A DNA stretch of 53,545 bases, taken from positions 1 to 53,545 of the forward strand of contig JAJTCL010000002.1 of assembly GCA_021323255.1 (NCBI GenBank), given 5' to 3'. The notes under the pieces were generated by a model. That model had not been told where the DNA came from, did no database searches, and saw nothing but the letters and a program-made list of their open reading frames with translations. Position 1 is the stretch's first letter. Each line of letters opens with the position of its first letter. Shown here piece by piece: positions 419 to 50,126 of the stretch. This DNA comes from Propionibacteriaceae bacterium (GTDB lineage Bacteria > Actinomycetota > Actinomycetes > Propionibacteriales > Propionibacteriaceae). The position numbers were made by a program, and so were the translations under genes.

Positions 419-534
419 GAGCTGCTCGCGCATCGCGCTTTGGATCCGCCGTTGTTGTCGTCGCTCGCAGAGGAAGAGCGCCTCCGCTCGCTCCTCCTCC
501 GTTAGGCGGCGCGCGATTTCCGACGCTCGCAGCT
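419..534. repeat. Dispersed structured element, family A, copy 1 (in the iolC leader)
   Basis: Colinear with 2127-2243 (about 13 mismatches in 116 nt by eye). Ends AGCTGC...GCAGCT. Confidence 0.9.
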
Positions 535-571
535 TTGAGATCAGATCGGGTCGCATTAGGGCTCTCGCAGC

Positions 572-618
572 ACGGTATTGGCCGTGGTGCCTGATGTCAA
601 TGATTTGTACAGACAAAT
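572..618 (-). promoter_or_regulatory. sigma70-type promoter of iolC with adjacent palindromic operator
   Basis: Minus strand TTGACA(600-595)-N17-TACCGT(577-572). Inverted repeat ATTTGT-ACAG-ACAAAT at 603-618. Confidence 0.65.
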
Positions 619-626
619 GGTCATGA

Positions 627-1031
627 CTACCCTACCGATGAGCTGAGGGTTCCATTCAGGAACTGGGCCTGACCCATACCGAACGACCAATCGGCATACT
701 TGTTGGCCATCACAGAAATCATCAAGTCCTCAGGCCGTACGCCGCATTCGGCCTCCAGCCGCTTCGCCAGTTCCGCATACGCGGCCACCTTTTGCCGGGT
801 CGACCTGCCCTGCTGAAAGATCTGGATGATCACAATGCCGTCCGAACGCTCCAACCCGAGGCCCGTGTCCTCGGCAATGATGTGACCGTCGTCGTGCTCG
901 GTGATGATCTGGTATCGATCGCGCGGCGGAGCGGCAAAAACGTCGAGCATCACGTCCTGGATGGTGTCAGCCAGTCTGCGGAGTTCCTCAGGCGTTCGAC
1001 CCTTCTGGACATCGATCCGGACCAGTGGCAT
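627..1031 (-). CDS. Tautomerase superfamily protein (malonate semialdehyde decarboxylase-like)
   Basis: Begins M-PLVRIDV (catalytic Pro-1), has DRYQIITEH and C-terminal DWSFG.GQAQF. Confidence 0.8.
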   Translation of the reverse strand: MPLVRIDVQKGRTPEELRRLADTIQDVMLDVFAAPPRDRYQIITEHDDGHIIAEDTGLGLERSDGIVIIQIFQQGRSTRQKVAAYAELAKRLEAECGVRPEDLMISVMANKYADWSFGMGQAQFLNGTLSSSVG

Positions 1032-1038
1032 GGTCACA

Positions 1039-1066
1039 ATTCTACTTTGTTAAGACATAATGTCAA
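1039..1066 (-). promoter_or_regulatory. Promoter (near-leaderless) of the tautomerase gene with an IolR-like box in the spacer
   Basis: Minus strand TTGACA-N16-TAGAAT, 7 nt before ATG. Spacer contains TGTCTTAACA. Confidence 0.65.
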
Positions 1067-1073
1067 AATGTGA

Positions 1074-2099
1074 TTAGGAGCCCAAGAGGAAGCCAGCGCC
1101 CCAGGCGAGGTGGGTCGCCGTCAACACCAGCGGTAGCCGCAGCCGAGCTGCCGCTGACATGGGCCTAGTGGTGATCAAGGAGCCACTGATGATCAACGCG
1201 AGATAGCCACCCGGGGCCAGGAACCCGGCACGAAGCGGCCGAGAGTTGCAGGCGACACCGATGACTCCTCCGATAGAGCCGACCAGTACGCCGACCAGGG
1301 TGAGCGGAGGGGCCAGGTAGCGGACCGTGGCCGTCTCGGGGTGGCGCCTGACCAACTCCCGGCGCCACCTCCCGGTCTCATACATCTGCTTCACCAGGGC
1401 TCGCAACGTGGAGCGCGGGCGATAGGTCACCCGGAGCTCCGGAGAGAACCAGATCTTGTGGCCGCTGGTCCGTAGCCGGTAGTTCAGCTCCCAATCTTGC
1501 GCGCGATGCATGCTCTCGTCGAAGCCGCCGACGGCGACGAGCGCTTCCTTCCGGAACACGCCGAGGAACACCGTCTCCGCCTCAGCTGCTGGTGAGGCGG
1601 CAAGGTGAAACGCTGAGCCGCCCAGTCCCAGCCGCGTCGTGTATGCGACGGCGACGGCTTCTTCAAACGGGGTGGATCCCTGCGCGTCCATGAGACCGCC
1701 GACGTTGGCGGCGCCGGTTTCGTCGAGCAATTCGACAGCTCGTCTGATGTAGCCGTCAGTCAGCTCACCGTGTCCATCGACCCGGGCGATGATCTCGTGT
1801 CTGGCGGCGGCGATGCCAAGGTTCAGGGCAGCGGGGGTACGTGCCGCTGGGTTGTCGACCACTCGGATCCGCGGGTCCGCCGCAGCCAGCGCCTGGGCGA
1901 TCTCGTGCGTGCGGTCGCTACTGGGCCCGACCGCAAGGACTACCTCGAGCTCACCGGGATAGTCCTGGTCGAGGACCCTGCGGATCGCCGCCTCGAGGTG
2001 GCGTTCCTCGTTCAGCACCGGCATGACGACCGAGACACCGGGCCAGACGGTGCTGACGCGATCCCCAGCGGTCTGCCCTCCCTCGTCAGTGAACGTCAC
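1074..2099 (-). CDS. Glycosyltransferase family 2
   Basis: VSVVMPVLNEE, RVDGH, GGFDE..AQDWELNYR motifs and C-terminal TM segments. Confidence 0.9.
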   Translation of the reverse strand: MTFTDEGGQTAGDRVSTVWPGVSVVMPVLNEERHLEAAIRRVLDQDYPGELEVVLAVGPSSDRTHEIAQALAAADPRIRVVDNPAARTPAALNLGIAAARHEIIARVDGHGELTDGYIRRAVELLDETGAANVGGLMDAQGSTPFEEAVAVAYTTRLGLGGSAFHLAASPAAEAETVFLGVFRKEALVAVGGFDESMHRAQDWELNYRLRTSGHKIWFSPELRVTYRPRSTLRALVKQMYETGRWRRELVRRHPETATVRYLAPPLTLVGVLVGSIGGVIGVACNSRPLRAGFLAPGGYLALIISGSLITTRPMSAAARLRLPLVLTATHLAWGAGFLLGS

Positions 2100-2126
2100 C
2101 CGATCATCTTGTCAGTCTTGATTTTT

Positions 2127-2243
2127 GAGCAGCTCGCGCATCGCGCTTGGAATCCGCCGCCGTCGTCGTCGCTCGCAGAGGAAGAACGCCTCTGCTCACT
2201 CCTCCTCCGTGCGGCGGCGCGCGATTCCCGACGCTCGCCGCTC
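2127..2243. repeat. Dispersed structured element, family A, copy 2 (uninterrupted)
   Basis: Fills the LCP-GT2 intergenic gap. Matches 419-534 and the host pieces at 49711-50126. Confidence 0.9.
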
Positions 2244-2249
2244 GGGTGG

Positions 2250-3713
2250 TCAGGCCGAACAGACCTTTCCAAGATCGTCGGTCTGCGCATCCCAGGAGGG
2301 GGACGCCGTAGGCTTGGGCTTTGGAGTGGCCTTGGGCGTAACGGCCGGCCTGGATTCGGCCACCCCAGCGTCCATGGCCTCGGAGGCCTCGATCTTCTTC
2401 TGAACAGTGCTACGTGCCAGCTCAAAGTCCGGCGAGCTCGGATCGATCAAGGGCGGCATCATGGCCACGCTCGACACTGGGAGGGCCTTGGCCTTGAGCG
2501 CTAGATCGATCATGGTGCCGACCTCCGACGTCGAGATGTCAGTGGCGACCACCTCTCGACTGGCTGCCGCGATCTTGTTGAACTTTGTCAGCACGGTGAT
2601 CGGCTCGAACTCGTTGAGCATCGCGCGCATGACGCACTTCTGTCGCAGCACCCGGTCGTAATCAGAGGAATCCGCGCGCGACCGAGCGAACCACAAGGCC
2701 TCATAGCCAGTGAGATGTCGGTTCTTGCCCGCTTCCACATAGGCAGAGACCTTCGTGCTACCACCCCCAATAGGAACTCGTCGGTAGACGTCCATGGTGA
2801 TGCCCCCGACCGAGTCCACCAGTGCCTGAAAGCCCTTGAGATCGATCAATGCCCAATAGTTGATCTTGAGACCGGTGGCACCTTCGACGGCTTCCTTGGT
2901 AGCTTGAGCGCCCGGATTCGGTACCCCTGGATAAAGATCGCGATGTTCGGCCGCGTAGGTGTAGATGGCGTTCAGCATGCAGGAGCCATCGGGGCAGCGA
3001 TAACCGTGCGGGAAACGATCATGCAGCGGTGAGTAGCTGGGAAAAGGCACCGCCTGCAAATTGCGCGGCAGGCTGATGAGCACCGTCCGCCCGGTCTCGC
3101 TGTCCACGCTCGCCACGGTCATACTGTCCGGCCGGACTCCGACGCGATTCTGTCCGGCGTCGCCGCCCATCAGCAAGACGTTGTAGCGCCCATGTTTCGC
3201 GACCTGGTCACCCCCGCCGGCAAAGACCGTGGTGGTCAGCTCATGTTGTGCCGACGCCATGGATGCGACGGCGATAAAACCGCCAAAGACGGCCAGCGCT
3301 ACCGTCACGGTGAGCGCTGAGAAGACGACCCGTCCCCAGCGGCCCTGTTCCCCAGGGTTCGCAAGCCGCCAGGCATCGACGATGAGCGCCACCCATCCCA
3401 GGCCGACAACGACGATGCCGATCTGGAGCGCCTTGAGGGTGGGAGCCAGCGTGAGCGTGGCTACGGCAGCCTTCGGTTGGATGAGCGCAAGCAGACCGGC
3501 AAGCAGCGCCAGCAACCACACAGTGACCCAGATTCGAAGGGCAATCCGACCCAGGATCCGGCTTCCGCCGGCTAGCTGAGCAGAACCCGGCAACACCAGC
3601 GTCATGGCTAGAAAGGCCAAGCCTCTGCGTCTCTTGACGCGTTCGCTTCGCTCGAAACATGTGGGCAACGAGGCCGGCGCACGCGGTGCAACATCCGCGG
3701 TGCGAACTGACAC
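2250..3713 (-). CDS. LCP (LytR-CpsA-Psr) family protein with N-terminal TM helices
   Basis: NVLLMGGD, RPDSM, SLPRN, ALWFARSR..SDYDRVLRQ motifs. Confidence 0.9.
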   Translation of the reverse strand: MSVRTADVAPRAPASLPTCFERSERVKRRRGLAFLAMTLVLPGSAQLAGGSRILGRIALRIWVTVWLLALLAGLLALIQPKAAVATLTLAPTLKALQIGIVVVGLGWVALIVDAWRLANPGEQGRWGRVVFSALTVTVALAVFGGFIAVASMASAQHELTTTVFAGGGDQVAKHGRYNVLLMGGDAGQNRVGVRPDSMTVASVDSETGRTVLISLPRNLQAVPFPSYSPLHDRFPHGYRCPDGSCMLNAIYTYAAEHRDLYPGVPNPGAQATKEAVEGATGLKINYWALIDLKGFQALVDSVGGITMDVYRRVPIGGGSTKVSAYVEAGKNRHLTGYEALWFARSRADSSDYDRVLRQKCVMRAMLNEFEPITVLTKFNKIAAASREVVATDISTSEVGTMIDLALKAKALPVSSVAMMPPLIDPSSPDFELARSTVQKKIEASEAMDAGVAESRPAVTPKATPKPKPTASPSWDAQTDDLGKVCSA

Positions 3714-3843
3714 CTTGGAAGCCTTTCGGTCTGCTGGCGGGGAAGAAATCGGGGAAGATCCCTGTCAGTATCTTCGGTCCGCATCCCTTGGGTGCTGAAG
3801 CCACGCCGACGAACTTGGACTCCGCCCGAGTACCTTTGCTGAC

Positions 3844-5127
3844 ATGTCTCCCGGCCGCGATGAGGATCTCGACTGGTTGTACGGGCGCGATCCCCAGCAA
3901 GCGGAGCCCGAACGGACACGTGTGATGCCGGACCCATACGGGACCGCCGCACCAGACTCACAGCAGAGGCGGGCGCCGTACCCGCGCACCCCTACTCACC
4001 AGACCCCACAGCCTCGCCCAGGCATCCCACCGTCCGGCCCGCCACGCGGACCTGGTGGGACGGCAGGCGGACCAAGGGCACCGCGGCCCGCCAGACCCGC
4101 AAAGCAACGGCGTCCGGTTCGGCGGTTCTTCCGGGTGCTGCTGATCTTGCTGCTGTTGTTCATCCTGTGGCTGATCGCCGTACCGGCGTACGCGTGGACC
4201 CAGATAGCCCGCGTTGACGCAGCACCATCCGGCCAGCGGCCTGCTGATCAACCAGGCAAGACCTTCCTGTTGGTGGGCTCAGACTCCCGAGCTGGGCTCA
4301 GCAGAGCCGAGCAAAGGCGACTCGGAACGGGTAGTACGGGCGGCCAGCGGACGGACACGATCATGCTGGTCTACGTCCCGCTGACCGGCAAGCCGGCGCT
4401 CATTTCAGTGCCGCGTGACTCTTATGTGGATGTTCCGAGCAATGGCAAGAACAGGATCAACGCCGCTTACGCCTTCGGCGGCCCTGAGCTGCTGGTACAG
4501 ACGGTCGAGCAGAACACCGGTCTTCGCATCGACGGTTATCTGGAGATCGGCTTCGGCGGCTTCGCCAATGTCGTCGATGCACTCGACGGCATCAGGATGT
4601 GCTTACCGAATGCGATCAAGGATCGCGACAGCCATATCGACCTGCCCAAGGGTTGCCAGACACTGAGTGGCACCAAAGCTCTCGGCTACGTGCGCATGCG
4701 CAAGGCCGATCCCCGTGGCGATTTCGGCCGCGTGGAGCGGCAGCGAGAGATGCTCGCTGCCGTGGCCGCGAAGGCAGCGTCCCCGGCCACCGTGCTGAAT
4801 CCGGTCCGTTATTGGAACTTTTGCATGGCTACTGCTGATGCGATCAAGCTCGGTCGCGACACCTCACTGCCTGAGACCCTGAGGTTGGCTTATGCCATGA
4901 AACGGATTTCTGGTGGCAACGGCCTCACGTTGACGGTACCGGTATCGAGCTCGGGCGCATCCACGTCAGTCGGCTCGGCGGTCTTGTGGGACGCCGCCAA
5001 GTCCAAGGCGATGTTCTCCGACATCAAGCGTGGAAGCATCTGCACGGGCCGGACCGTTGACACTGGAGGTCAACTCAATGAACAGCCCATCCCATGCGGC
5101 CTCTCGAGCCGCGGCTCGAACTCATGA
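3844..5127 (+). CDS. LCP family protein (C-terminal tail after ~5030 looks atypical)
   Basis: FLLVGSDSR, RTDTIML, SVPRD, INAAY, ALGYVRMR..GDFGRVERQR. Confidence 0.9.
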   Translation: MSPGRDEDLDWLYGRDPQQAEPERTRVMPDPYGTAAPDSQQRRAPYPRTPTHQTPQPRPGIPPSGPPRGPGGTAGGPRAPRPARPAKQRRPVRRFFRVLLILLLLFILWLIAVPAYAWTQIARVDAAPSGQRPADQPGKTFLLVGSDSRAGLSRAEQRRLGTGSTGGQRTDTIMLVYVPLTGKPALISVPRDSYVDVPSNGKNRINAAYAFGGPELLVQTVEQNTGLRIDGYLEIGFGGFANVVDALDGIRMCLPNAIKDRDSHIDLPKGCQTLSGTKALGYVRMRKADPRGDFGRVERQREMLAAVAAKAASPATVLNPVRYWNFCMATADAIKLGRDTSLPETLRLAYAMKRISGGNGLTLTVPVSSSGASTSVGSAVLWDAAKSKAMFSDIKRGSICTGRTVDTGGQLNEQPIPCGLSSRGSNS

Positions 5128-5396: not shown

Positions 5397-6416
5397 ATGA
5401 TTCGATCCGCAAAGGGCTCGGCGCTTGGCCGACCCCGCAAGGGCATGACCCTGACCGCCCTCGCAGCGGCTGCATTACTCGTACTGTCAGCATGTAGCGG
5501 CGGCGGCGCTCCCGAGACCCAACCAGAGAACCAGGGCGGTGGCGGTGGCGGCGGCGAGTCTGGTTACACGATCGCCATGATCACCCATGAGACGCCCGGC
5601 GATACGTTCTGGGATCGGATCAGGGCCGGGGCTGAGCAGGCGGCCAAGGACACTGGGTCGACATTGAAGTACTCAGCCGATCCCGACGCCACCAAGCAGG
5701 CCGTTCTTATACAGAACGCGATTGACTCCAAGGTCGATGGCATCGCGACCACGCTCGTCACCCCGGATGCCTTGATTCCCACGGTCCAGAAAGCCGTCCA
5801 GGCCGGAATTCCCGTGGACAGCTTCAACTCCGGCCTCGACTATTACAAGCAGGCGGGCGCGCTCACCCACTTTTCCTCCGATGAGCGACTCGCCGGTCAG
5901 GAGGCGGGCAAAAGGATGAAGGCGGCCGGCGCCGAGAAGATCCTCTGCACCATCCAACAGGCCGGGTCGGTCGCCCTTGAGGACCGCTGCGCCGGGGTTA
6001 AGGACAGCTTCCCCAACACTGAGAACCTGCAGGTGAACGGCGCCGACGACTCGGCCGTCACTTCGGCGATCCAGGCCAAGCTGAGTCAGGACAAGGACAT
6101 CAACTGGGTGATCACCCTCGGCGCACCGCAGGCCCTGGACACCCTGAAGGCCTTCGAGGGTTCCGGCAGTTCGGCGAAGGTAGGCACCTTCGACACCAAC
6201 CCGGATGCGGCGCAGGCTGTGAAGGACGGCAAGATCCAGTTTTACATCGACCAGCAGCCCTACCTGCAGGGCTACATGGCCGTCACACAGCTCTATCTCT
6301 TTAAGAAAAACGGCAATATCCTCGGTGGTGGCAAGCCGGTTCTGACCGGCCCGTCCTTCGTCGACAGCAGCAACATCGACACGATCCTGCCGTTCGTCCA
6401 GAACAACACCCGATAG
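5397..6416 (+). CDS. Sugar (probably inositol) ABC transporter substrate-binding lipoprotein
   Basis: Lipobox LSAC, ITHETPGDTFW, IDQQPYLQGY. RBS GAAAGGA. Confidence 0.9.
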   Translation: MIRSAKGSALGRPRKGMTLTALAAAALLVLSACSGGGAPETQPENQGGGGGGGESGYTIAMITHETPGDTFWDRIRAGAEQAAKDTGSTLKYSADPDATKQAVLIQNAIDSKVDGIATTLVTPDALIPTVQKAVQAGIPVDSFNSGLDYYKQAGALTHFSSDERLAGQEAGKRMKAAGAEKILCTIQQAGSVALEDRCAGVKDSFPNTENLQVNGADDSAVTSAIQAKLSQDKDINWVITLGAPQALDTLKAFEGSGSSAKVGTFDTNPDAAQAVKDGKIQFYIDQQPYLQGYMAVTQLYLFKKNGNILGGGKPVLTGPSFVDSSNIDTILPFVQNNTR

Positions 6417-6461
6417 CCTCGACACGATCCTGCCGTTCGTCCAGAACAACACCCGATAGCC
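6376..6461. repeat. Perfect 43-bp tandem duplication spanning the SBP stop codon
   Basis: TCGACACGATCCTGCCGTTCGTCCAGAACAACACCCGATAGCC at 6376-6418 and 6419-6461. Confidence 0.95.
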
Positions 6462-6474
6462 AAAAGCCTCCGCG

Positions 6475-6506: not shown

Positions 6507-6533
6507 GCGAAGACAACTCACCGGAGATGCAAC

Positions 6534-7595: not shown

Positions 7596-7596
7596 C

Positions 7597-11398: not shown

Positions 11399-12402
11399 AG
11401 TTCGGGGTTTACAACGCGATCTTGCACGACCGGTCACTGCCGGAGGCGATCGAGGTGATCGCCAAGCTCGGCCTCACTGGCATCGAGCTCAACTCAGGCG
11501 GCTTCCTGCCGCCGGTACACATCCCCACCTTCGACGACATCCTCACCTCCGACACCGCGCGTGATGACTTCCTTGGACAGTTCGAAGGCACGGGCGTTGA
11601 GATCGCAGGCCTGAACTGCAATGGCAACCCGCTGCACCCCGATGCTGTGATCGGTCCCAAGCATGCCGAGGATGTACGGCGGAGCATCCGGCTCGCCAAT
11701 CGGCTGGGCCAGCACCGCGTTGTGACGATGTCTGGCCTGCCGGCCGGAGAGCCCGGCGGCAAACGGCCGAACTGGATAGTGAACGCATGGAACTCTGCCG
11801 CGCTCGACGTACTCGATTACCAATGGAGTGTCGCAGCGGAATTTTGGCGCGAGATCGACCGGGAGGCGGCCGACCTCGACGTGAAGGTCGCGCTCGAGCT
11901 GCACCCGCAGAATATCGTGTTCAACCCAGCCGGTATGCGCGAACTCGTGGAACGCACCGGTGCTACCAACGTCGGTGTGGAACTCGACGCCTCGCACTTG
12001 TTCTGGCAATGGATGGACCCGGTGGCCGTCGCACAAGACCTTGGTCCGCTGGTGTTCCACGCGGCAGCGAAGGACGTACGCATCAACCCTGCGGCCGCTG
12101 TTTACGGTGTGCTCGACAACAGGTTCCGCCGGCTGAGTCCGGATGAACCACGTACCAATCTTGGTGGCGATGAGTGGGCCAATGAATGGCCGCAGGACGC
12201 CGCGTGGGACTTCGTTGCACTCGGTCGCGGGCACGACGCCGTCTACTGGTCGACCTGGCTCGCTGCCTTGCACGCAATCGATCCCGACATGCTCGTCAAC
12301 ATCGAGCACGAGGACGTCTCACTCGGCCGCATCGAAGGCCTCGAGGTCGCGGCCGGGGTATTGCTCGATGCGGCCCGGCGGGCAGGCCTGTCGAATTCTT
12401 GA
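11395..12402 (+). CDS. Sugar phosphate isomerase/epimerase (xylose isomerase-like TIM barrel)
   Basis: LELHP, ELDASHLFWQ, HAAAKD, NIEHED. ATGA overlap with the upstream gene. Confidence 0.9.
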   Translation: MKFGVYNAILHDRSLPEAIEVIAKLGLTGIELNSGGFLPPVHIPTFDDILTSDTARDDFLGQFEGTGVEIAGLNCNGNPLHPDAVIGPKHAEDVRRSIRLANRLGQHRVVTMSGLPAGEPGGKRPNWIVNAWNSAALDVLDYQWSVAAEFWREIDREAADLDVKVALELHPQNIVFNPAGMRELVERTGATNVGVELDASHLFWQWMDPVAVAQDLGPLVFHAAAKDVRINPAAAVYGVLDNRFRRLSPDEPRTNLGGDEWANEWPQDAAWDFVALGRGHDAVYWSTWLAALHAIDPDMLVNIEHEDVSLGRIEGLEVAAGVLLDAARRAGLSNS

Positions 12403-12417
12403 GCTGCTCGCGGATCA

Positions 12418-12483
12418 CGGGTTGCCAACGCTGAGCTGATCGACGAGGTGTATCGAAGGGCCGGACTGTCACCTCGCAGCTAG
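12418..12483 (+). pseudogene. C-terminal remnant of another Gfo/Idh/MocA gene
   Basis: VANAELIDEVYRRAGLSPRS* resembles the C-terminal helix of this family. Confidence 0.45.
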
Positions 12484-15565: not shown

Positions 15566-16255
15566 TTACGCCACCCGCTCGGTAGCAAGCTCCTCGGCAA
15601 GCATGTGTGCGAAGACGGCAGTCGTCGAAGTGTGATTGCCCAGGAAATCTCGGGGTCGGCCCATCGAGTCGCGACTGGCCCGGATGTAGTCCTCACTCCC
15701 TGGCCGAGGCTTGACGTGCAGGAACATCGGCAACCCGTAGCGCAGACAGATGAAGGCGACGAGCAGTCTTGCGACCCGGCCGTTGCCATTGGCGAAGGGA
15801 TGAACGCGCAAGCACTCGCCATGGGCGAGCGCGGCAAAGCTGATCAGCGCGAGTATCTCGTCTGGGGTGGTCGGTGACTTCCCCGTGGGCAGCCGAGCGT
15901 CCAGCTCCACGAAGACTGCGCCCAGCCCGGCGAGCACCGCATCAATCTCCTCACCCACCTGGCGCGCCCAGACGCCCATCTTTTCCAGATTGCCGTCCTT
16001 CAACCGCGCACCCAGTCCAACTTCGTAGTCGATCAGCTCTGGGACGGCCGGGTCGCCGCGAAGATGCCCGACATAGCCGGCAACCGGCACGTCACATCCG
16101 GCGTAGAGCCGCGCATGCCAGCGGCAGAGTTCCTCGCGAGTGGGCAGGACGCGATCAGTGGCAGTCGCGCGCAGCTCGGTGATGAGTTGCGTGACATTGC
16201 CTTGGATCAGCGAGAGATTCTTTGGGTCGTCTTCCTGCCACCACGGAGCTGTCAT
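15566..16255 (-). CDS. Fic-domain protein (putative toxin)
   Basis: HPFANGNGRVAR Fic motif. Translationally coupled to the upstream small gene. Confidence 0.85.
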   Translation of the reverse strand: MTAPWWQEDDPKNLSLIQGNVTQLITELRATATDRVLPTREELCRWHARLYAGCDVPVAGYVGHLRGDPAVPELIDYEVGLGARLKDGNLEKMGVWARQVGEEIDAVLAGLGAVFVELDARLPTGKSPTTPDEILALISFAALAHGECLRVHPFANGNGRVARLLVAFICLRYGLPMFLHVKPRPGSEDYIRASRDSMGRPRDFLGNHTSTTAVFAHMLAEELATERVA

Positions 16256-16635
16256 GCCAGCCCGGTACGCGCCGATCTATAGATCGTCGTCACGTCCGGG
16301 GCGGGGTGGGAACGGTCGGCAGCGACTCGATCGACTGTGGCGGCAGGCTGCATGGGTCCGGTTTGCAGCGGCTCCGGCAGGCCTTCTCCCGCCACGAAAC
16401 GCGCCAGACCGCGGGCCTGGATCCGCTCGTGTTGCTCCTGGGTTAGCTCGGCCAACCGATCTGCGGCAGCCCGCAGATCCTCGCTCAGCATCCCGCCGCG
16501 TGCGACGACCTCATGTTCGATTGCCTGCTCGATCAGCTCGTTCTGACTGATGCCCAATCGGGCGGCGACCTCAGCGGTCAGGGTCCGAAGCTTCTCGTTA
16601 CGCCAGCGCAGTGGGAATGCAGCTCGCGGTGCCAT
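16252..16635 (-). CDS. Ribbon-helix-helix-like protein, putative antitoxin of the Fic protein
   Basis: N-terminal AFPLRW..LRTLTAEVAARLGISQNELIEQAI (RHH pattern), ATGA overlap with fic, GGAGG RBS. Confidence 0.65.
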   Translation of the reverse strand: MAPRAAFPLRWRNEKLRTLTAEVAARLGISQNELIEQAIEHEVVARGGMLSEDLRAAADRLAELTQEQHERIQARGLARFVAGEGLPEPLQTGPMQPAATVDRVAADRSHPAPDVTTIYRSARTGLA

Positions 16636-16669
16636 GCCTCCAGCATGCTGTGATTCTGCGTGATGTCAA
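16636..16669 (-). promoter_or_regulatory. Own promoter of the RHH-fic pair with ATCAC direct repeats
   Basis: Minus strand TTGACATCACGCAGAATCACAGCATGCTGGAGGC-ATG. The -35 overlaps the vapC stop. Confidence 0.5.
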
Positions 16670-17094
16670 GACGAGCGTATGACATCAGGCTCATGCTTCG
16701 CTCCTGACAACACTTCAACTGCACACATGATCTGCGGCGCCCTGGAAAGACGTGCATCAGCGGTAACCAGCGTTGTCCCGAGCAGCTCAGCCAGTGCGAC
16801 ATAACTCGCGTCATAGGCCGTCAGGTTGTCACGCAGGTCCCAGCAACGTGTCAGAAGTTCGCGATGTGATGCCCGGCGAAGCGAGAGATCACGGAGGTCC
16901 GCAAGCGCCTCGCGCGCACGACGTTCATCCACCTTTCCAACGCGGAGCAGCCCGCGCAACGCGGATGTGACCTCAAGATCGACTAATTCTGGCGCGGCCA
17001 GCTCTTCCCCTCGCAGGCGGGCTCGCGCAGTGTCTCCCCAAACCCCGTCATCGACGAAGACAGCGACAAGAACACCCGCGTCAGTGACTATCAC
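16666..17094 (-). CDS. vapC: VapC PIN-domain toxin
   Basis: MIVTDAGVL, ELVDLE, LTAYDASYVALAE, LVTAD acidic PIN residues. GTG start overlaps the end of the antitoxin gene. Confidence 0.9.
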   Translation of the reverse strand: MIVTDAGVLVAVFVDDGVWGDTARARLRGEELAAPELVDLEVTSALRGLLRVGKVDERRAREALADLRDLSLRRASHRELLTRCWDLRDNLTAYDASYVALAELLGTTLVTADARLSRAPQIMCAVEVLSGAKHEPDVIRSS

Positions 17095-17311
17095 GATCCG
17101 CCCGGATGATGGCATTGATGTCGTCGAAACTTACCGATCCCCCAGATCGGCTAGCTGCGCGTTCAAGAACCTCATCAAGCGTTGGTCGATCAGCCTCTTC
17201 GATGAGGTGCTGCAGGAGGTATTCCTGCAGCGACTGATGCGCGGCGGTGGCCCGCTTCCGCAACACCGCATGGGTGCGTTCGGGCACACCCTTGATCTGG
17301 ATGCTCGTCAT
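17081..17311 (-). CDS. vapB: VapB/FitA-like RHH antitoxin
   Basis: MTSIQIKGVPERTHAVLRKRATAAHQSLQEYL, directly upstream of vapC. Confidence 0.88.
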   Translation of the reverse strand: MTSIQIKGVPERTHAVLRKRATAAHQSLQEYLLQHLIEEADRPTLDEVLERAASRSGGSVSFDDINAIIRADRDSH

Positions 17312-31561: not shown

Positions 31562-32648
31562 TTACAGACCCGCTACGGTAAGCACGATCAAGATCAAATT
31601 CAGTGCCGTGACAATGCCGATCACCAACCAGGTGACACCAATGGTGGCTCGTCTGGTGGGCACCAGGTGCATCAGATCCGGATCTGAGGCGATTCGAACC
31701 AGCGGAACCAGCGCAAAGGGAATCCCGAACGATCAGCACTCGGCGCCAGAGAATCGGTATTCGCCGGTGCAACAGGCCGTCCATGATCACAGCGCCGGCG
31801 TAGCCGCCTACCGAGGTGGAAGCCAGGCCCGAGGCGAGCAGGGCCAACGCAAACAGCCCGGCGATCAGGGGGCCCAACTCAGCTCCGAGGGCGCTATGGG
31901 CGGCCTGCAATCCCTCCACATTCAGACCGCTCAGCGTGCTCGCAGCGAGCAACAGCATGCCAACGTTGACGGTTCCCGCCACTAGCATCGCCAGACCGAC
32001 GTCCAGCCGGATGGTCTTGAGCATCGGTACGGCGCAGTCGGGGTCGGCACGTCCGTGCCGGTCACGGATCAAGGCGGAATGCAGGTAGATGGCGTGCGGC
32101 ATGACCGTTGCGCCGAGCATGCCGACTGCGAGGACTGCACTCTCGGTGCCGCTGAGTGCCGGCACCAGCCCAGCAAGAGCCTGGCCGGGGTCCGGGGGTG
32201 AGGCGACCAGGCCCGCGAGAAAACCGACGGTAACCACGGCCAGCATGCCGGTGATGACTCGCTCGAAAGTCTGCTGGCTCCTGGTGTTCTGCAAGAACAG
32301 CAATCCGGTCGACACCACGGTGGTGATGAGCGCCCCGGTCACCAGCGGCAGCCCGAAGAGCAAGTTGAGCGCGACCGCGCCACCCACAATCTCTGCCAGA
32401 TCGGTTGCCATGGCAACCAGCTCAGCCTGGATCCAGTAACAGATCCGCGGCAACGTGGAATTGCGGCGAGCCACGAGCGCCGGCAATGTCTCCCCGGTCA
32501 GCCAACCCACCTTGGCCGACAGATACTGCACCAGACCAGCCATCAGGGTTGCCCCGACGCCGGGATCGACGTACGCAACGGCTGCGACGAAGGCCGGACC
32601 CAGCAGCCGGGTGCGCTGCAGCAGCGCCTCTCTCTGCAACAACGTCAA
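31562..32648 (-). pseudogene. mntH: Nramp/MntH Mn2+ transporter with two internal deletions
   Basis: YVDPG joined directly to VGATLMA (DPGN motif broken). ATDLAE and VMPH intact. A second junction near 31733 shifts frame to SFGIPFALVPL...AGL*. Confidence 0.8.
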
Positions 32649-33160: not shown

Positions 33161-33318
33161 TGCTGCTCGTGCATCGCGCATGGGATCCGCCGCCGTCGTC
33201 TCTCGCAGAGGAAAGAACGGCTCGCCCCGTGTCCATGGCTCGCTCCGCTCGGAGAGGTTGGCGCTCCGGCGCCAGCGTGCCCCCGCGCGGCGGCGCGCAA
33301 TTCCCCACGCTCGCAGCA
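33161..33318. repeat. Family A element, copy 3, with an internal insert (33229-33280)
   Basis: Ends TGCTGCTCGTGCATCGCGC..GCGCAATTCCCCACGCTCGCAGCA. Insert starts GTGTCCATGGCTCGCTCCGCTCG. Confidence 0.8.
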
Positions 33319-35772: not shown

Positions 35773-36521
35773 TCAATGCGTTAGGCGAACCGCAGTCGTT
35801 GCTGCTGCTCGGCGGCACCTCAGACATCGCCTTGGCCATAGCCCGACGTTATGCTCGCCCGGGGCTGCGCGTGGCGCTCGCCGCGCGGCCGAGTGAACGT
35901 CGGAGCGCTGCCGCGACCGAGCTCGCCGACCTCGGCTGCGAGGTCACTGAAGTCGATCTTGAGGCTCGTGATCATGCATCCCACGCTACGACCGTCGAGC
36001 AGGCTTTCGCCGGCGGCGACATCGACATCGCTGTAATCGCCTTCGGCCTGCTCGGTGACCCGGAGCAGGCATGGCACGACCCCGACCTGGCCCTCGAGCT
36101 TGCCGAGGTCAACTACACCGCGCCGGTACACCTCGGGGTGCTGCTGGGTCAGCGCATGCTGGCCCAGGCGCACGGCTGGATTGTGGCGCTGTCCAGCGTG
36201 GCGGGTGAGCGGGTACGCCGCTCGAACTTCGTTTACGGCTCAACAAAGGCCGGCCTCGACGGCTTCTTCCTAGGTCTGGGTGAAGCGCTACGCGAGTACG
36301 GCGCGCGCGTGCTTGTCGTCCGGCCAGGTTTCGTCAAATCGAAGATGACCTCAGGGCTCGAAGAAGTACCCCTTGCGGTGACGCCGGACCAGGTAGCAGA
36401 GGCGGTCACCGACGCCATCAAAAGCAAACGGGAGCTCATCTGGGTGCCCGGACCACTGCGCGTCGTGATGTCGGGCCTGCGACACGTACCGCGACCACTC
36501 TTTCGCAAATTACCGATTTAG
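35769..36521 (+). CDS. dprE2: Decaprenylphosphoryl-2-keto-D-ribose reductase
   Basis: MINALGEPQSLLLLGGTSDI, SSVAGERVRRSNFVYGSTKAGLDGF. Confidence 0.92.
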   Translation: MINALGEPQSLLLLGGTSDIALAIARRYARPGLRVALAARPSERRSAAATELADLGCEVTEVDLEARDHASHATTVEQAFAGGDIDIAVIAFGLLGDPEQAWHDPDLALELAEVNYTAPVHLGVLLGQRMLAQAHGWIVALSSVAGERVRRSNFVYGSTKAGLDGFFLGLGEALREYGARVLVVRPGFVKSKMTSGLEEVPLAVTPDQVAEAVTDAIKSKRELIWVPGPLRVVMSGLRHVPRPLFRKLPI

Positions 36522-36602
36522 CGACCGTGTCGGCACTTGGATGCTGAGGCGTACTCGTATCGCGAGCTGCGTCTGTTGGAAACGCACGTGCTTTGCTGAG
36601 CC

Positions 36603-38117
36603 TTATACCGGCGGTATGCCGTGCCGCCGGGTGGAGAAGTGACGGTCCTTGGTAGCGGCTGCGGCGAAGCGGGCGACCAATTCGCGGCGTACCTCGCGCG
36701 GCTCCACGATCGCATCGACGACCAGCTCGCTGGCCAGCCGCAGGATGTCGATGTCGATCTCGTAATCCTTCCGCAGCCGCTCGACGTAGCTGATCCGCTC
36801 AGCCTCGTCCTTGATCTCGGCGATCTTGTTCGCATAAACAGCATTGATCGCCGCCTCAGGACCCATCACAGCGATCTTGGCGGTCGGCAAGGCCAAGCAG
36901 GCATCGGGGCCGAACCCCGGGCCAGCCATGGCATAAAGTCCAGCGCCGTAGGCCTTCCGGATGATCAACGAGACAGTCGGCACGGTGGCCTCCGCTACTG
37001 CGGTGATCATCTTCGCACCGTGCCGGATGATCCCTTGCCGCTCCACAGCGCTGCCGATCATGAATCCGGGCACGTCTGCCAAGTACAGCAGGGGGATGCT
37101 GAACGCGTCGCAGTGCCAGATGAAGCGCGCGCCCTTATCGGCGGAGTCGACGAACAGTACTCCGCCCTTGACGGCCGGCTGGTTGGCCACGATGCCGATC
37201 ACTTCCCCCTCCAGCAGCGCGAAGCCCGTCACCAGCTCAGGAGCAAACAGCGGCTTGATCTCAAAAAAGGAACCTTCGTCCACGATCGCTTCGACGATCC
37301 TGCGGATGTCGTAGCCAGCAGACTCCTGTGACGGTACAAGATCATCGGCGAAGTCTCGGGCCGGATCCAGCGGGTCGTAGGCCGGCAGCGGGCTGCGCCA
37401 GTTCAGCGGCAGGTAAGAGAAATAGTGCTGGGCCTGCTCGATCGCCTCGGTATCGTCGGCGGCCAACTGGTCCCCGCATCCGGAGATCGTTGCGTGCATC
37501 CGGGCGCCGCCCATCTCCTCGAGTGTGACTTTCTCCCCCACCACCATCTCGGCCATCCGCGGCGACCCCAGGTACATCGAGGCATTCGCCTCGACCATGA
37601 TCACGACGTCGCAGAAAGACGGAATGTAGGCTCCGCCGGCTGCGCTCGGGCCGAAGAGGCAGCAGATCTGGGGAACCTTGCCGGACAATGCGACCTGGTT
37701 GTGGAAGATCCGGCCCGCACCCCTTCGGCCAGGAAACAGGGCAACCTGATCGGTGATCCGCGCACCTGCCGAATCGATGAACCAGAAGATCGGTAGCTCG
37801 TCTCGCAGCGCCACCTCGGTCATCCGGATGATCTTCTCTACCGTCCGGGCGCCCCAGGAGCCGGCCTTGACGCCTGGATCATTGGCGACCACCAGGGCCG
37901 GCCGCCCTTGAACCAGACCACGGCCGGTGACGACGCCGTCGGCCGGCAGGTCGTCGGCCAGTGCGTTGCCGAGCTGGCCGTCCTCAACAAAGGTGCAGTC
38001 GTCGAACAGCAGATCGATCCGCTCACGCACGAAGAGCTTGTTCGCGCTGGCCAGCTTGGCCTCCGCCCGTTCCGTCGGAGCCAGCGTACGGTCACGCGCG
38101 GCGCTGATTCGATCCAT
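36603..38117 (-). CDS. Acyl-CoA carboxylase beta subunit (methylcrotonyl-CoA carboxylase-like)
   Basis: DSAGARI, AAGGAY, ADVPGFMIG, RKAYGAG. Confidence 0.9.
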   Translation of the reverse strand: MDRISAARDRTLAPTERAEAKLASANKLFVRERIDLLFDDCTFVEDGQLGNALADDLPADGVVTGRGLVQGRPALVVANDPGVKAGSWGARTVEKIIRMTEVALRDELPIFWFIDSAGARITDQVALFPGRRGAGRIFHNQVALSGKVPQICCLFGPSAAGGAYIPSFCDVVIMVEANASMYLGSPRMAEMVVGEKVTLEEMGGARMHATISGCGDQLAADDTEAIEQAQHYFSYLPLNWRSPLPAYDPLDPARDFADDLVPSQESAGYDIRRIVEAIVDEGSFFEIKPLFAPELVTGFALLEGEVIGIVANQPAVKGGVLFVDSADKGARFIWHCDAFSIPLLYLADVPGFMIGSAVERQGIIRHGAKMITAVAEATVPTVSLIIRKAYGAGLYAMAGPGFGPDACLALPTAKIAVMGPEAAINAVYANKIAEIKDEAERISYVERLRKDYEIDIDILRLASELVVDAIVEPREVRRELVARFAAAATKDRHFSTRRHGIPPV

Positions 38118-40763: not shown

Positions 40764-40951
40764 GCTGCTCGCGCTCTGTTCGATGGCTCGCTCCGCTCGC
40801 GGCGGATCGCGCCGCGAAGTCGCCTACTTCGTCGTCGCTCCCCGACGAAAGGCGTGTCGGCTCGTTCCTCCTCAGCACGGCGACGCGCGATCCGATTTGG
40901 GTCCTCGCACCTCCTCACCACCGAAGAGCCGCGATTCTCGACGCTCGCAGC
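40764..40951. repeat. Decayed family A element (copy 4) containing a full B-type insert (40777-40894)
   Basis: Outer ends GCTGCTCGCGC / GCGATTCTCGACGCTCGCAGC. Insert colinear with 49898-50016. Confidence 0.8.
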
Positions 40952-43774: not shown

Positions 43775-43776
43775 GG

Positions 43777-44610: not shown

Positions 44611-44684
44611 GCAAGAACCGTACCGTGCAAGATCAAGATGCGGGAATCCTCGATTCGGCTGACTCAGTTGCGGGCAGTACCGGC

Positions 44685-46097: not shown

Positions 46098-46143
46098 TCT
46101 TCCATCTCGCTGACGGCAGCACGGACCAGATAACCTCGCTGCT

Positions 46144-46584
46144 GTGCTGTACGCGGCGTACGGAAGCAACCTGGATCCAGGTCAAATGGCCGACCGTTGC
46201 CCGCATTCACCGCAGCGCGGCACCGGATGGGTTGAGGGCTGGCGCGTCACCTTTGGCGGCGAGGGTTGGGATGGTGCGCTGCCAACGTTGGTCGAGGATC
46301 CAGACAATCAGGTCTTTGTCGCCGTGTACGACGTGACGCCCGGTGACGAAAGCACCCTCGACGAATGGGAGAGCGCGGACACCGGGCTGTATCGCAAGGT
46401 CCGGGTACGGGTGGCGACGCTCGACGGCGAGGTGGCTGCCTGGGTCTATGTCTTGAATGACTTCGAGGGCGGTATCCCGAGCGCCCGGACCATTGGGATC
46501 CTTGCCGATGCGGCCGAGGCGGCCGGCGCTCCCACGGACTATGTCGCGGAGCTGCGCTCGCGTCCCTGCGTCAGCGGCTGGTGA
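46144..46584 (+). CDS. Gamma-glutamylcyclotransferase family protein
   Basis: YAAYGSNL, LDEWE, divergent from lpdA. Confidence 0.88.
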   Translation: MLYAAYGSNLDPGQMADRCPHSPQRGTGWVEGWRVTFGGEGWDGALPTLVEDPDNQVFVAVYDVTPGDESTLDEWESADTGLYRKVRVRVATLDGEVAAWVYVLNDFEGGIPSARTIGILADAAEAAGAPTDYVAELRSRPCVSGW

Positions 46585-46607
46585 GCTTGCGCAGTTAATG
46601 TCGTGCC

Positions 46608-47423
46608 ATGCCCAACGTTGGCCTGCCATCCGATCCGTACGCGCTCGCGAAGCTCGCTGCAGCAGCCATCCTGGAACGCTTCGACATTCCCCAAGTCGAT
46701 GCTGCTTTCGTGCTGGGATCAGGATGGTCGGCCGCCGCCGATAATCTTGGCGAGTTGATGGGCAGCTGCGAGCTGGCTGAACTGCCGGGCTGTGCACCGC
46801 CGACCGTGGTCGGTCACGGCGGGGAGCTTCGGATCGTCTCGACGTCCAGGGGCAAGATCGGGGCGATCTTCACTGGGCGCACCCATCTCTACGAAGGCTT
46901 TGGAGTGGACCAGGTAGTGCACGGGGTGCGCTCGGCCATCGCCGCTGGCGCCGCAGTGATCGTCCTGACGAACGGGTGCGGTGGACTCAACCCTCAATGG
47001 CCGCCCGGCTCGACCGTGCTGATCCGCGACTTCATCAACTTGACTGGCACCTCACCACTGCTGGGGGCCCGCTTCATCGACATGTCGATGCCGTACTCGG
47101 CGCGACTACGTGATCTTGCTCGTTCGGTGGATCCAGACCTGCCAGAGGGCGTGTACGTCCAGTTTCGCGGACCTCAGTTCGAAACTCCGGCCGAGGTACG
47201 GATGGCTGGGGTGCTGGGCGGCGACCTGGTCGGCATGTCGACCACACTCGAAACCATCGCAGCCAGCGAGCTCGGCGCAGAGGTACTCGGCATCTCTCTG
47301 GTCACGAACCTGGCGGCAGGCATCTCACCCCACCCGCTCAGCCATGAAGAGGTGCTCGAGGCCGGACGAGAAGCTGGGCCGCGGCTAAGGCGGTTGCTCG
47401 GGGGAATAGCGGCTGCCTTGTGA
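46608..47423 (+). CDS. punA: Purine-nucleoside phosphorylase
   Basis: VLGSG, GRTHLYEG, GPQFETPAE, VGMST, LVTNLAAG. Confidence 0.93.
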   Translation: MPNVGLPSDPYALAKLAAAAILERFDIPQVDAAFVLGSGWSAAADNLGELMGSCELAELPGCAPPTVVGHGGELRIVSTSRGKIGAIFTGRTHLYEGFGVDQVVHGVRSAIAAGAAVIVLTNGCGGLNPQWPPGSTVLIRDFINLTGTSPLLGARFIDMSMPYSARLRDLARSVDPDLPEGVYVQFRGPQFETPAEVRMAGVLGGDLVGMSTTLETIAASELGAEVLGISLVTNLAAGISPHPLSHEEVLEAGREAGPRLRRLLGGIAAAL

Positions 47424-49090
47424 CATCGACGGCGCCTAGCCTTTCCGACGACCTCGCTCGCGCAATTACCAGCTGGACCGCCCAAGACCCTGATCCGCAG
47501 ACCCGCAAGCAGGTGGATGATCTGCTGATCGCGGCCGACTCTGGGGACACGCGTGCGATGGCGGAGCTTGTCGACGCATTCGCCTCCCGACTGCAGTTCG
47601 GAACGGCTGGGTTGCGCGGCGCACTGGGTCCTGGACCGAATCGAATGAATAGAGTGGTCGTCGGCCAGGCCGCAGCCGGGCTCGCCAGCTACCTTCTTGA
47701 TCATGGCCTGGCTGGCGGAAACGTGATCATCGGCTTCGATGCTCGGCACAACTCCGCCGTCTTCGCCCGAGACACGGCGGAGATCATGTCCGGTGCTGGC
47801 TTCCAGGCCATGATCACGCCAGGGCCATTGCCGACACCCGTTGTGGCATTCGGCGTCCGCCATTTCGGCTGCGTGGCTGGCGTTGTCGTCACCGCATCGC
47901 ACAATCCGCCTCAGGACAACGGATACAAGGTCTATCTCGGGGATGGCTCGCAGATCGTGCCGCCTGCTGACTTGGAGATCTCCTCGAGGATCGAGGAGGT
48001 AACCAAGCACAGCCTGTACGACGTGCCGCGCTCCCAGTCCTACGCAGTTCTCGGAGAGGAGTTGCCGACCGCATACCTGGCTCGGGTCGCTTCCCTGGTA
48101 CCGCGAAGCGCGCCCCGCGACCTGCGCTGGGTCTACACCCCGCTGCATGGCGTGGGCGGCTCGCTGGTCGAACAAGCGGTCGAGGCCTGCGGGCTACCTG
48201 CTGCTCACGTAGTTGTCGAGCAAGCCAGCCCCGATCCGAGATTCCCGACAGTGGCATTTCCCAATCCAGAGGAACCTGGTGCCATCGACCTCGCTCTAGC
48301 ACAGGCACGCCAGATCAGTGCCGATCTGGTGATCGCCAACGACCCCGACGCCGACCGCTGCGCGATAGCCGTGGTCGTCGACGGGGAGTGGCGGCTGCTG
48401 AGTGGCGACGAGCTCGGTGTTCTGCTTGGCGAGGACGCCCTGCGGCGTGGCGTCCGCGGTACCTATGCCTGTTCGATCGTTTCCAGCTCTCTACTCTCGG
48501 CTATGGCCGCGACATACCGGCAACCCTTCGTCCACACCCTGACCGGGTTCAAGTGGATCGGGCGGGTGCCCGGGCTGGCGTACGGCTATGAGGAGGCTCT
48601 CGGCTATTGCATCGATCCGGAAGCGGTTCCTGACAAGGACGGGATCTCCGCGCTCATCATGGTGCTGACCCTCGCCGCCGGCCTCAAGGCGGAGGGACGG
48701 AGCATCGCGGATCGGCTGGACGACATCGCCCACCGCTACGGGGTCTACGAAACCCACCAGATGTCGGTACGTGTCCAGGATCCCAAGATCATCACGGCAG
48801 CCATGGCTCGACTTCGGGCGCACCCGCCCCGGATCCTTGCTGGGCAACCCACCAGAGTGCTCGATCTGGACCTTGGGTCAGATGAATTGCCGCCCACCGA
48901 TGCAGTCTTGATCACGAGTGAAATGATCAAGGTCGTGGTCCGGCCGTCCGGTACCGAGCCGAAACTCAAGTGCTACCTGGAAGCCCGTCTGGACACTTCC
49001 CGCAGCACCGACCTCGCTGCGGCCAGAGCCGAGGCGCGATCAACGCTCGCGACGATTCGGTCCGACATGTCTGCAGTGCTCGGCCTGTGA
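47420..49090 (+). CDS. Phospho-sugar mutase (phosphomannomutase)
   Basis: FGTAGLRG, TASHNP, DPDADR, YEEA, RPSGTEPK. Confidence 0.93.
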   Translation: MTSTAPSLSDDLARAITSWTAQDPDPQTRKQVDDLLIAADSGDTRAMAELVDAFASRLQFGTAGLRGALGPGPNRMNRVVVGQAAAGLASYLLDHGLAGGNVIIGFDARHNSAVFARDTAEIMSGAGFQAMITPGPLPTPVVAFGVRHFGCVAGVVVTASHNPPQDNGYKVYLGDGSQIVPPADLEISSRIEEVTKHSLYDVPRSQSYAVLGEELPTAYLARVASLVPRSAPRDLRWVYTPLHGVGGSLVEQAVEACGLPAAHVVVEQASPDPRFPTVAFPNPEEPGAIDLALAQARQISADLVIANDPDADRCAIAVVVDGEWRLLSGDELGVLLGEDALRRGVRGTYACSIVSSSLLSAMAATYRQPFVHTLTGFKWIGRVPGLAYGYEEALGYCIDPEAVPDKDGISALIMVLTLAAGLKAEGRSIADRLDDIAHRYGVYETHQMSVRVQDPKIITAAMARLRAHPPRILAGQPTRVLDLDLGSDELPPTDAVLITSEMIKVVVRPSGTEPKLKCYLEARLDTSRSTDLAAARAEARSTLATIRSDMSAVLGL

Positions 49091-49127
49091 CGGGCCCCCC
49101 GTCGACTCAGCGAATTAAGCTGTCGGC

Positions 49128-49712
49128 ATGCGCGGTGCGAGGTGGGCAACCGTGCTCAGTGCGGTACTGGCCACGCCACTGCTGCTGCTCCTGATCTTCG
49201 TCAGACTCGACTATGAGCCTTTCTTCCTGCCACTGCTGACAAATCCGGACGGCACACCCACGACGCTGATGCTGGGAGTTCTGCTGAGCGTTCCAGTCGG
49301 ACTCGTGATCAATCTGCTCCCCCGCCTCCGCCGGCCAGCGGGCAGATCGGCGCGATTCGTCCCAACACCGGCACATGTCATCGTCGGACTGGCGATGCTC
49401 AGCATCGTCATGCTCACCACAGCCGAGTTTGGACTCAATGAACTCAGACCTTTTGTGGCGCCGCTCGGTCCGGCTGCATTCCTTGGCCAGGTCGCATTCC
49501 TGCTCATGGTGGTGGCCTTGCCCGTCGGCGTCTTGCTCAATCGTCTACCTCGTTTTGCCGCGGCTAGGTGGGACTGCAGCCCTCAGGGCCGGACGGTTAT
49601 TTCGGCCAATGTGATTGTCGGTGCGGTCCTGATCCTGTTGATGATCATGCTGCTCAGCGCCTTTGCCCTCGAGGCGACGGCCTGCAGCGTAGGTGTACCG
49701 AACTGCGATTGA
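49128..49712 (+). CDS. Hypothetical multi-pass membrane protein
   Basis: About five hydrophobic segments, internal repeat PVG..(I/L)N.LPR, ends ACSVGVPNCD. Confidence 0.7.
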   Translation: MRGARWATVLSAVLATPLLLLLIFVRLDYEPFFLPLLTNPDGTPTTLMLGVLLSVPVGLVINLLPRLRRPAGRSARFVPTPAHVIVGLAMLSIVMLTTAEFGLNELRPFVAPLGPAAFLGQVAFLLMVVALPVGVLLNRLPRFAAARWDCSPQGRTVISANVIVGAVLILLMIMLLSAFALEATACSVGVPNCD

Positions 49713-50126
49713 GCGGCGAGCGTCGGCAATCGCGCGCCGCCGCACGGAGCCAGGCTGGCGCGCAGCTGCCCTGGACGATCGAGCGAGCAGACATGCTTTT
49801 CGTCCGCGAGCGGGTGGGGAAGGCAGCGGCCAACAAGCGCCAGCCTCAGCGAGCGGAGCGAGCAATGCCGTGAGGAGCGAGCGGAGGCGTTTTTCTCTGT
49901 TTGATTGCTCGCTGCCGCTCGCTGCGGATCGCGCCAGGAAGCCGCCTACTTTGTCGTCGCTCACAGACGAAGAGCATGTCGGCTCGCTCCTCCGCAGCAC
50001 GGCGGCGCGCGATCCGGTGCGAGCGACGACGACGGCGGCGGATTCTCGATGTTCGCGCCGCCGATCTCCCAACAAATTGCGCGAGCGCGGAGCGAGCAAT
50101 CAAACACAGCGCGATGCGCGAGCAGC
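49711..50126. mobile_element. Family A element, copy 5 (inverted), interrupted by three B-type inserts
   Basis: Host pieces 49711-49749, 49872-49899, 50018-50045, 50108-50126 rejoin into the reverse complement of 2127-2243. Mobility is inferred. Confidence 0.8.

Follow-up and report, generated by a model that had tools for sequence, protein, structure and literature searches.

The 53,545-nucleotide stretch of a Propionibacteriaceae genome analysed here (contig JAJTCL010000002.1, positions 1 to 53,545, hereafter the window) contains five copies of an intergenic element whose purine-rich strand is predicted to fold into one long hairpin interrupted by tandem GA/GA steps. In the source assembly (3.37 Mb, 94% complete, designated G000; other G numbers stand for genomes of relatives) the family amounts to 142 loci, its paired positions covary and its GA/GA steps are retained. 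The family is structurally unusual, actively polymorphic and restricted to its genus, with essentially none beyond it. It is apparently undescribed so far: no account of it was found in the literature searched, subscription papers not being covered. We best file it with the small non-autonomous palindromic repeats; a mobiliser for it was not found.

A predicted hairpin with tandem G-A pairs on one strand

All five copies, numbered 1 to 5 by position, were present where the original prediction, made from the letters alone, had placed them, and all lie between called genes of the window (49 genes called) (Table 1). The predicted family stood but its size of about 117 nt did not, the core measuring 113-114 nt and the inserted unit at copy 1 123 nt. 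The purine-strand layout had to be qualified: it is found on the minus strand in copies 1 to 4, whereas the outer element of copy 5 lies on the plus strand with one insert inverted. Read along the purine strand, the A type starts with a terminal clamp in which a GA/GA step stands between 5-7 pairs and 3 pairs; an unpaired stretch with CGTC and the stems P1 and P2 follow, then four GA/GA steps with 1, 1 and 2 pairs between them, an apical stem with its pyrimidine loop and, last, a 3' bulge. The four steps with one or two Watson-Crick pairs between them were those predicted, and the fold of copy 2 under RNA parameters was identical; closure of the termini through GA/GA, also predicted, was found as a fifth step in the terminal clamp.

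Types B, C and D have the P1-P2-zipper-apex layout in common with A, with different stems and no clamp; the swapped stems named in advance for the B-type inserts were present. Subfamily C keeps four GA/GA steps while its spacer pairs differ. The 3' end of B, C and D is a mini-hairpin made of a GA/GA step and a three-base loop, which in G000 was GGA in 60 cases, GAA in 16, GCA in 11 and GTA in 5, every other triplet being counted at most 6 times. Minimal clamps of 27-29 nt and collapsed remnants of 27-49 nt were also present. Copies 3 to 5 are composites of several subfamilies, and nesting has preferred positions: of 46 C-type contexts found, 24 were listed, and in 17 of these the element lies within the left zipper arm of A or B; for D-type elements, with 27 found and 24 listed, the position is the 3' bulge in at least 14. 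Copies are also arranged head to tail, with 29 distinct junctions and spacers of 8-17 nt. The unit is polar, its 5' arm being flush and an A-rich spacer occurring at the 3' end only (A frequency at +10 to +12 of about 70% on the 3' side vs about 24% on the 5' side); no second hairpin was detected in the 3' spacer (3.42 vs 3.38 in the swap control).

Table 1. Element copies of the window and the pieces nested in them
Feature	Position	Strand	Remarks
Copy 1, A-type core, 113 nt	421..533	-	Clamp at the ends with one GA/GA step; P1 and P2 stems; GA zipper of four steps; hairpin at the apex
Copy 1, A-rich 3' spacer, 10 nt	411..420	-	Belongs to the 123-nt insertion 411-533, missing in G138, G114, G110 and G003
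Copy 2	2127..2243	-	A-type core 2129-2241; terminal arms extended by two pairs
Copy 2, A-rich 3' spacer	2115..2126	-	Near-identical strain of run X2: 13 other letters in place of 2115-2241
Copy 3	33162..33317	-	Degenerate A-type; C-type insert remnant in left arm (~33233-33276), with a GNA-loop mini-hairpin at 33238-33251
Copy 4	40764..40951	-	A-type clamp ends enclosing a B-type core (40804-40893) and a GNA-loop tail (from 40786)
Copy 5, outer A-type element with three nested pieces	49713..50126	+	Begins right after the stop codon of the open reading frame (ORF) 49128-49712
C-type element nested in the left zipper arm of copy 5	49750..49867	+	Own four-step GA zipper; GNA-loop tail 49849-49863
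B-type element with tail, inverted, nested at the copy 5 apical hairpin	49899..50017	-	Orientation opposite to the outer element
D-type remnant with tail, nested at the copy 5 3' bulge	50047..50107	+	Orientation as in the outer element

We then looked at the conservation of this fold. When 22 G000 copies were aligned (MAFFT, hand-set structure), 96% of the cells paired and 11 of the 33 pairs had changed on both sides, a covariation that none of 500 shuffles reached and that was far lower in slid controls. Genus-wide, in an alignment fitted to the model, 31 of the 33 pairs had changed on both sides (47 distinct rows). In 40 copies the 20 GA positions were conserved at 95%, compared with 90% for the paired positions, 79% for the loop and 72% for the 3' bulge. 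Among 281 distinct cores, selected by at least 10 of 12 pairs and 3 GA, 912 of 1124 GA/GA steps were intact, 21 had become Watson-Crick and 5 read GA/TC or TC/GA. The purine strand had the lower energy in 39 of 40 copies with RNA parameters and in 38 of 40 with DNA parameters. On that strand G-T outnumbered A-C by 64:25, or 47:25 once one inherited column was removed. Under RNA parameters it reached z values of -2.4 and -3.3, and the zipper of copy 2 was the minimum-energy fold.

As to which nucleic acid folds, passages of PMC13037366 report that a GNA triloop hairpin is far more stable in DNA than in RNA, that the stability of the DNA mini-hairpin is not explained by prediction parameters and that the measured RNA form is far weaker. 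On these data the GNA-triloop tail would favour DNA as the folded strand, whereas the sense bias described below leaves RNA open.

Number, range and polymorphism of the family

An iterated nhmmer profile gave 167 matches in G000 (45 of full length) and 0 in the reversed assembly; merged with the profiles of the other subfamilies they make up the 142 loci, 21.7 kb in total, and 3 of the loci overlap with called genes. In a strict hairpin scan, 17 stems had at least three GA/GA steps; ten other dinucleotides gave 0-1 stems apiece, and TC, which reads the same stems on the other strand, gave 9. The covariance model R1 was positive in 103 of 120 other genomes of the Propionibacteriaceae genus, which may be Microlunatus in the broad sense. 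On 100 genomes drawn from the order it matched 7 of 8 genus members and, weakly, one other (E 8.7e-4), and on 140 genomes of the class, a set that may hold no MIRU-rich mycobacteria, it gave 0 matches. Outside the genus, a loose zipper pattern run on 300 genomes of the phylum returned only coding Glu/Asp runs (judged by eye). The first 80 of 118 exact-pattern matches in genomes were all metagenome-assembled genomes labelled Propionibacteriaceae or Actinomycetota, and the sequencing runs containing window sequence were mostly soil metagenomes. Copy 1 had no match in plasmids or phages, nor had the core pattern in viral contigs. No catalogued structured RNA was recognised: the Rfam 15 covariance models gave 0 matches at gathering score over the window and 0 up to E=10 on the five copies. 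One weak match outside the family (L316, G176:C1:1928605-1928708) keeps a GA-G-GA-G-GA / GA-C-GA-C-GA zipper around a different stem.

Empty orthologous sites were found in relatives for copies 1, 3 and 5. At the copy 1 site G000 and G088 carry the element, and the four genomes named in Table 1 have a clean empty site; the two states differ by the core plus its A-rich spacer, two bases are repeated, and in G022 the site shows a 6-bp duplication. For copy 3 the empty sites are those of G138 and G110, and a repeat of 4 nt was seen in G088; for copy 5 the whole site is unoccupied in G114, G138 and G088, and the repeat measures 3-4 nt. The copy 4 site is filled in all four relatives compared, with different inner content, and at the copy 2 site relatives carry elements in both orientations. 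A contig of run X2 that has a single difference in about 1,890 aligned bases carries the replacement given in Table 1, the 13 letters of which match the left end of an opposite-orientation copy 2 allele; this one contig may reflect gain, loss or allele exchange, all three being compatible with it. The three clean window junctions have repeats of 2-4 nt. Over 107 non-redundant A copies no fixed target duplication was detected, repeats of at least 4 nt being seen in 37 of 107 vs 29 +/- 4 in shuffled controls, with no fixed offset. When 1.2 Mb of G114 (about 90% identical) were compared, the orthologous site had no match for 15 of 30 G114 loci and 24 of 38 G000 loci, several of these match-free sites being collapsed remnants, and the orientation was identical in 29 of 29 filled pairs.

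Looking at the placement relative to genes, 62 of 105 scored loci lie between co-directional genes, 27 between divergent and 16 between convergent ones, for a background of 30% divergent and 14% convergent; there was no enrichment between convergent genes among these loci, and both orientations occur. The median distance to the adjoining stop codon is 21-25 nt, and no T-run follows the hairpin on either strand. The neighbouring genes that we assigned by Pfam (52 of 240 neighbours in G000 and 20 from relatives) belong to housekeeping families, 13 of the 72 being without assignment, and no recurring mobile family was seen among the 240. In two soil RNA libraries, contigs span copy 1 and the genes on both sides, which is not proof of transcription; read depth over the element could not be taken as expression because other copies pile up there.

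Other repeats were noticed alongside the family. Positions 36515-36605 of the window are a repeat hot spot between convergent genes, with a different palindromic repeat in G000 and G114 and A-type elements in G138, G088 and G110 (four in tandem in G110). A 24-nt match to an element end lies at a gene's stop codon (12401-12424), possibly a remnant. Further intergenic repeat families of G000 form clusters of 58, 29, 18, 14, 13, 11, 11 and 10 regions, several of them palindromic or rich in GNA-loop hairpins, and one repeat cluster (C417, C276, C287) has A-type clamp ends around a different interior. An element of about 165 nt resembling a MITE (a miniature transposable element with inverted repeats) was seen at G000:C118:5565-5729; its 17-nt terminal inverted repeats are nearly perfect, they enclose a three-step GA/GA zipper, and its profile has 5 matches in G000. 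At the site matching window positions 49085-49130 such an element is present in G088 (L221) and not in G000, G114 or G138. GA zippers thus also ride in an element of the terminal-inverted-repeat type.

Elsewhere in the window, a perfect 43-bp tandem duplication (6376-6461) lies over the 3' end of a sugar-binding protein gene and is either recent or an assembly artefact. The NRAMP/MntH-like ORF at 31176-32648 matches its family over residues 33-308 only, was not called by the codon model and may be degraded, alignments to relatives breaking near 31733 and 32560. A PIN-domain ORF beside a small ORF without assignment (16252-17115) is possibly a toxin-antitoxin pair.

Comparison with known systems and search for a mobilising enzyme

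A close likeness is with REP, BIME and REPIN sequences, which according to passages of PMC3116915 and PMC8266576 are also multicopy intergenic hairpins of about 100 nt with presence/absence differences, mismatches conserved in the stem and a strand-specific fold; REPINs nest and build tandem units (PMC3116915), and conserved mismatches are recognition determinants of REPs (PMC8266576). The present element differs in having four to five tandem GA/GA steps where REPs have one bulge, and one long hairpin instead of an inverted doublet of 20-40 nt palindromes; its alignments show no 5' GTAG/GTGG tag, and no Y1_Tnp gene was found in any genus genome searched. Unpaired GA residues are described for one Pseudomonas REP family in PMC3733652, in which mycobacter-, actinobacter- and MIRU do not occur.

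The original prediction had likened the arms to those of mycobacterial MIRUs, which, in the descriptions drawn from PMC3184786 and PMC12548453, are likewise small actinobacterial intergenic repeats with tandem arrays and short direct repeats at filled sites; mycobacterial stem-loop families that bear on this question are listed in PMC2267715. Compared by description only, MIRUs measure 40-100 nt against 113-123 nt here, where both orientations occur, many copies are far from start codons and 27 of 105 lie between divergent genes. The published MIRU rule, insertion where stop and start codons overlap, with an internal ORF that is coupled and 4-nt repeats, suits only copy 5: the TTGA at the stop codon before it (49709-49712) is repeated at 50136-50139. 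DTGA, which we take to be the MIRU target motif, was found on both sides in none of 29 A copies.

A further likeness is to the CGTC-tagged repeats (SRM) that go with Ssn (GIY-YIG) nucleases: A copies hold a conserved unpaired CGTC near their 5' end and the tails show a GNA-loop hairpin followed by AATC, comparable with the NTS of PMC11893778. However, the SRM pattern given in that text has 31 matches in G000, none of them among the 142 element loci. Integron attC sites have core boxes and are conserved as a one-strand fold rather than as sequence. The element resembles them in this last respect and in length, but it lies between housekeeping genes and not gene cassettes, and no core boxes were seen in it by eye; IntI is counted among the enzymes acting on folded single-stranded DNA in a passage of PMC8266576. 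Finally, the B/C/D tail is the DNA mini-hairpin d(GCGNAGC) extended by a tandem GA/GA step. The tail mini-hairpin with a variable middle loop base also occurs at 31 viral-contig loci (L505-L535, IMG/VR, 28-68% GC), but the likeness ends with the tail, since none of the 31 has the zipper core.

The predicted absence of a transposase from the window held for the 41 ORF queries, which covered most of the called genes. The partner genes suggested with it, Y1/RAYT, GIY-YIG and reverse transcriptase, did not follow the element. Y1_Tnp/RAYT was found neither in G000 nor in any of 44 genomes nor in any of 5 that included the complete, element-rich G158 and G140, the search being positive in 6 of 14 controls. 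According to passages of PMC6006769, PF01797 aligns only in part to some TnpA-REP classes, so that a very divergent RAYT could be missed, and only IS200-type members of this transposase family are found in high-GC Actinobacteria. The GIY-YIG frames of G000 are of 693 and 571 aa only; frames of Ssn size were rare, occurring in 4 of 30 element-rich genomes and in 1 of 14 that are element-free, and the element was missing from all 3 such loci checked. Reverse transcriptase was equally common in element-bearing (15 of 22) and element-free (6 of 9) genomes, was not found in G000, and none of 20 of its loci carried the element. IS110 is absent from G158 and G140, and 0 of 30 IS110 loci carry the element; DUF559 occurs in 25 of 27 genomes regardless of the element, which stands at 1 of 30 of its loci. 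The Y2 transposase of IS91-type elements (Y2_Tnp) was negative in 5 of 5 genomes, with the controls all negative as well, and the integron integrase TIGR02249 was below cut-off in 5 of 5 genomes and in the control genomes too. An HUH-motif scan of G000 gave one match, irrelevant, and by eye no transposase-size ORF stood between credible element ends in G000 or in 1.2 Mb of G114. As G000 is 94% complete, absence of a gene from this assembly alone proves little.

How the element may spread

We favour, with reservations, the view that the copies are mobile but non-autonomous, carried to new sites in the form of folded single-stranded DNA by a strand-transfer enzyme acting in trans, which was not found. 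Of the corresponding proposal in the original prediction, the dispersed non-coding family, the structural conservation on one strand and the empty orthologous sites were borne out, and mobilisation in trans was not. The observed basis is the copy number, covariation, GA/GA retention, empty sites, polarity, nesting at preferred positions and head-to-tail arrays; from these we infer that there is an enzyme, where it cuts, and that a single strand and a circle are formed on the way. Once the duplex is open, the purine strand would fold into a rod with tandem G-A pairs, and the enzyme would read its shape (zipper, clamp, GNA-loop tail) and not a fixed inverted repeat. The enzyme would cut at the base of the 5' arm and where the A-rich spacer ends, freeing a unit of about 123 nt, probably circular, which would be joined to a new site through 2-4 matching bases. 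Arrays and composites would result when the unit enters next to or within an existing copy. The fold would be selected in copies that must stay movable and not necessarily in the host.

Several observations weigh against this view. No partner search yielded a mobilising gene, and no circle or excision product was seen in the material covered, namely assembled contigs. Whereas IS200/IS605-type elements prefer the lagging-strand template (a passage of PMC6006769), the element had no replichore bias in two complete genomes (11 of 22 and 16 of 27, the origin being assumed near base 1). Of the 62 co-directional sites, 42 have the purine strand in sense and 20 in antisense orientation (p 0.007). With standard DNA parameters neither strand was better than shuffles (z -0.3 to -0.7); the parameter set may lack sheared G-A terms. 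The covariation cells overcount events because related copies have changes in common, and many sites empty in the G114 comparison are collapsed remnants, meaning that loss by hairpin deletion accounts for part of the polymorphism.

The sense bias would suit an RNA intermediate, in which the purine strand is transcribed and folds and a reverse transcriptase taken from elsewhere turns it back into DNA, in the manner of bacterial SINEs or retrozymes. Such a route agrees with the polar unit, its A-rich 3' end and variable short repeats, with the zipper as minimum-energy RNA fold, with tolerance of G-U and, as far as they go, with the RNA-library contigs over copy 1. We nevertheless hold it unlikely, given the distribution of reverse transcriptases described above, the third of co-directional copies that are antisense, the lack of any Rfam ribozyme match and the GNA triloop, a DNA-favoured motif. 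We give about the same low probability to spread without a dedicated enzyme, where the one-strand fold stalls replication or survives DNA uptake and copies pass on by template switching, gene conversion or inter-strain recombination. The failure of every search for a partner, the collapsed remnants and the copy 2 alleles common to different species fit this, and so do the terminal arms, which match copy by copy (position 6 paired at 0.86 vs 0.41 expected in 107 A copies) as template switching predicts. But template switching should also turn GA/GA into GA/TC, a change seen in only 5 of 1124 steps; moreover the clean 123-nt difference at copy 1 and the preferred nesting points look enzymatic, and copies stand at unrelated sites whose flanks are without homology.

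That the copies are host-selected RNA elements, stabilisers or attenuators of untranslated regions repeated by chance, seems quite improbable: the short distance to stop codons, the sense bias and the strong RNA fold would be expected, but close relatives disagree at about half or more of the orthologous sites, one site has copies in both orientations, divergent starts are flanked as often as in the background, and the T-run is missing on both strands. Least probable of all is that a DDE transposase moves the element as an ordinary MITE whose terminal inverted repeats are the clamp arms. The size and short inverted ends agree with it, and the separate MITE-like family of G000 also has an internal GA zipper; however, the ends differ at the GA/GA step and vary per copy with compensation, there is no duplication of fixed length, types B, C and D have no clamp, and by eye no credible pair of ends surrounds a transposase-size ORF in G000 or the 1.2 Mb of G114. 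The plain MITE reading is largely refuted.

The spread of small orphan repeats without a gene of their own, MIRUs for example, is an old open question. For its study the genus provides a test bed, with more than 100 element-bearing and some element-free genomes, complete genomes in both groups, filled and empty alleles in near-identical strains and defined nesting points; G158, G140, G110 and G088 are complete and element-rich, and G060, G063, G065, G074 and G085 are element-free. Tandem G-A pairs are mostly known from synthetic oligonucleotides and satellites, and the family adds rare comparative evidence that selection maintains them in a bacterial genome even as all the adjacent pairs change. 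A more tentative idea, which we think possible but rather doubtful, is that the element stands for a new class of bacterial mobile DNA defined by a one-strand sheared G-A zipper and read either by a host recombinase that it has hijacked or by an enzyme other than the known partners (Y1/RAYT, Ssn, reverse transcriptase, IS110). A new enzyme that reads the fold, if there is one, would add a DNA tool specific for strand and structure; and should such a shape-based class exist, for which the odds seem to us rather low, the same principle could explain other orphan repeats, MIRUs included.

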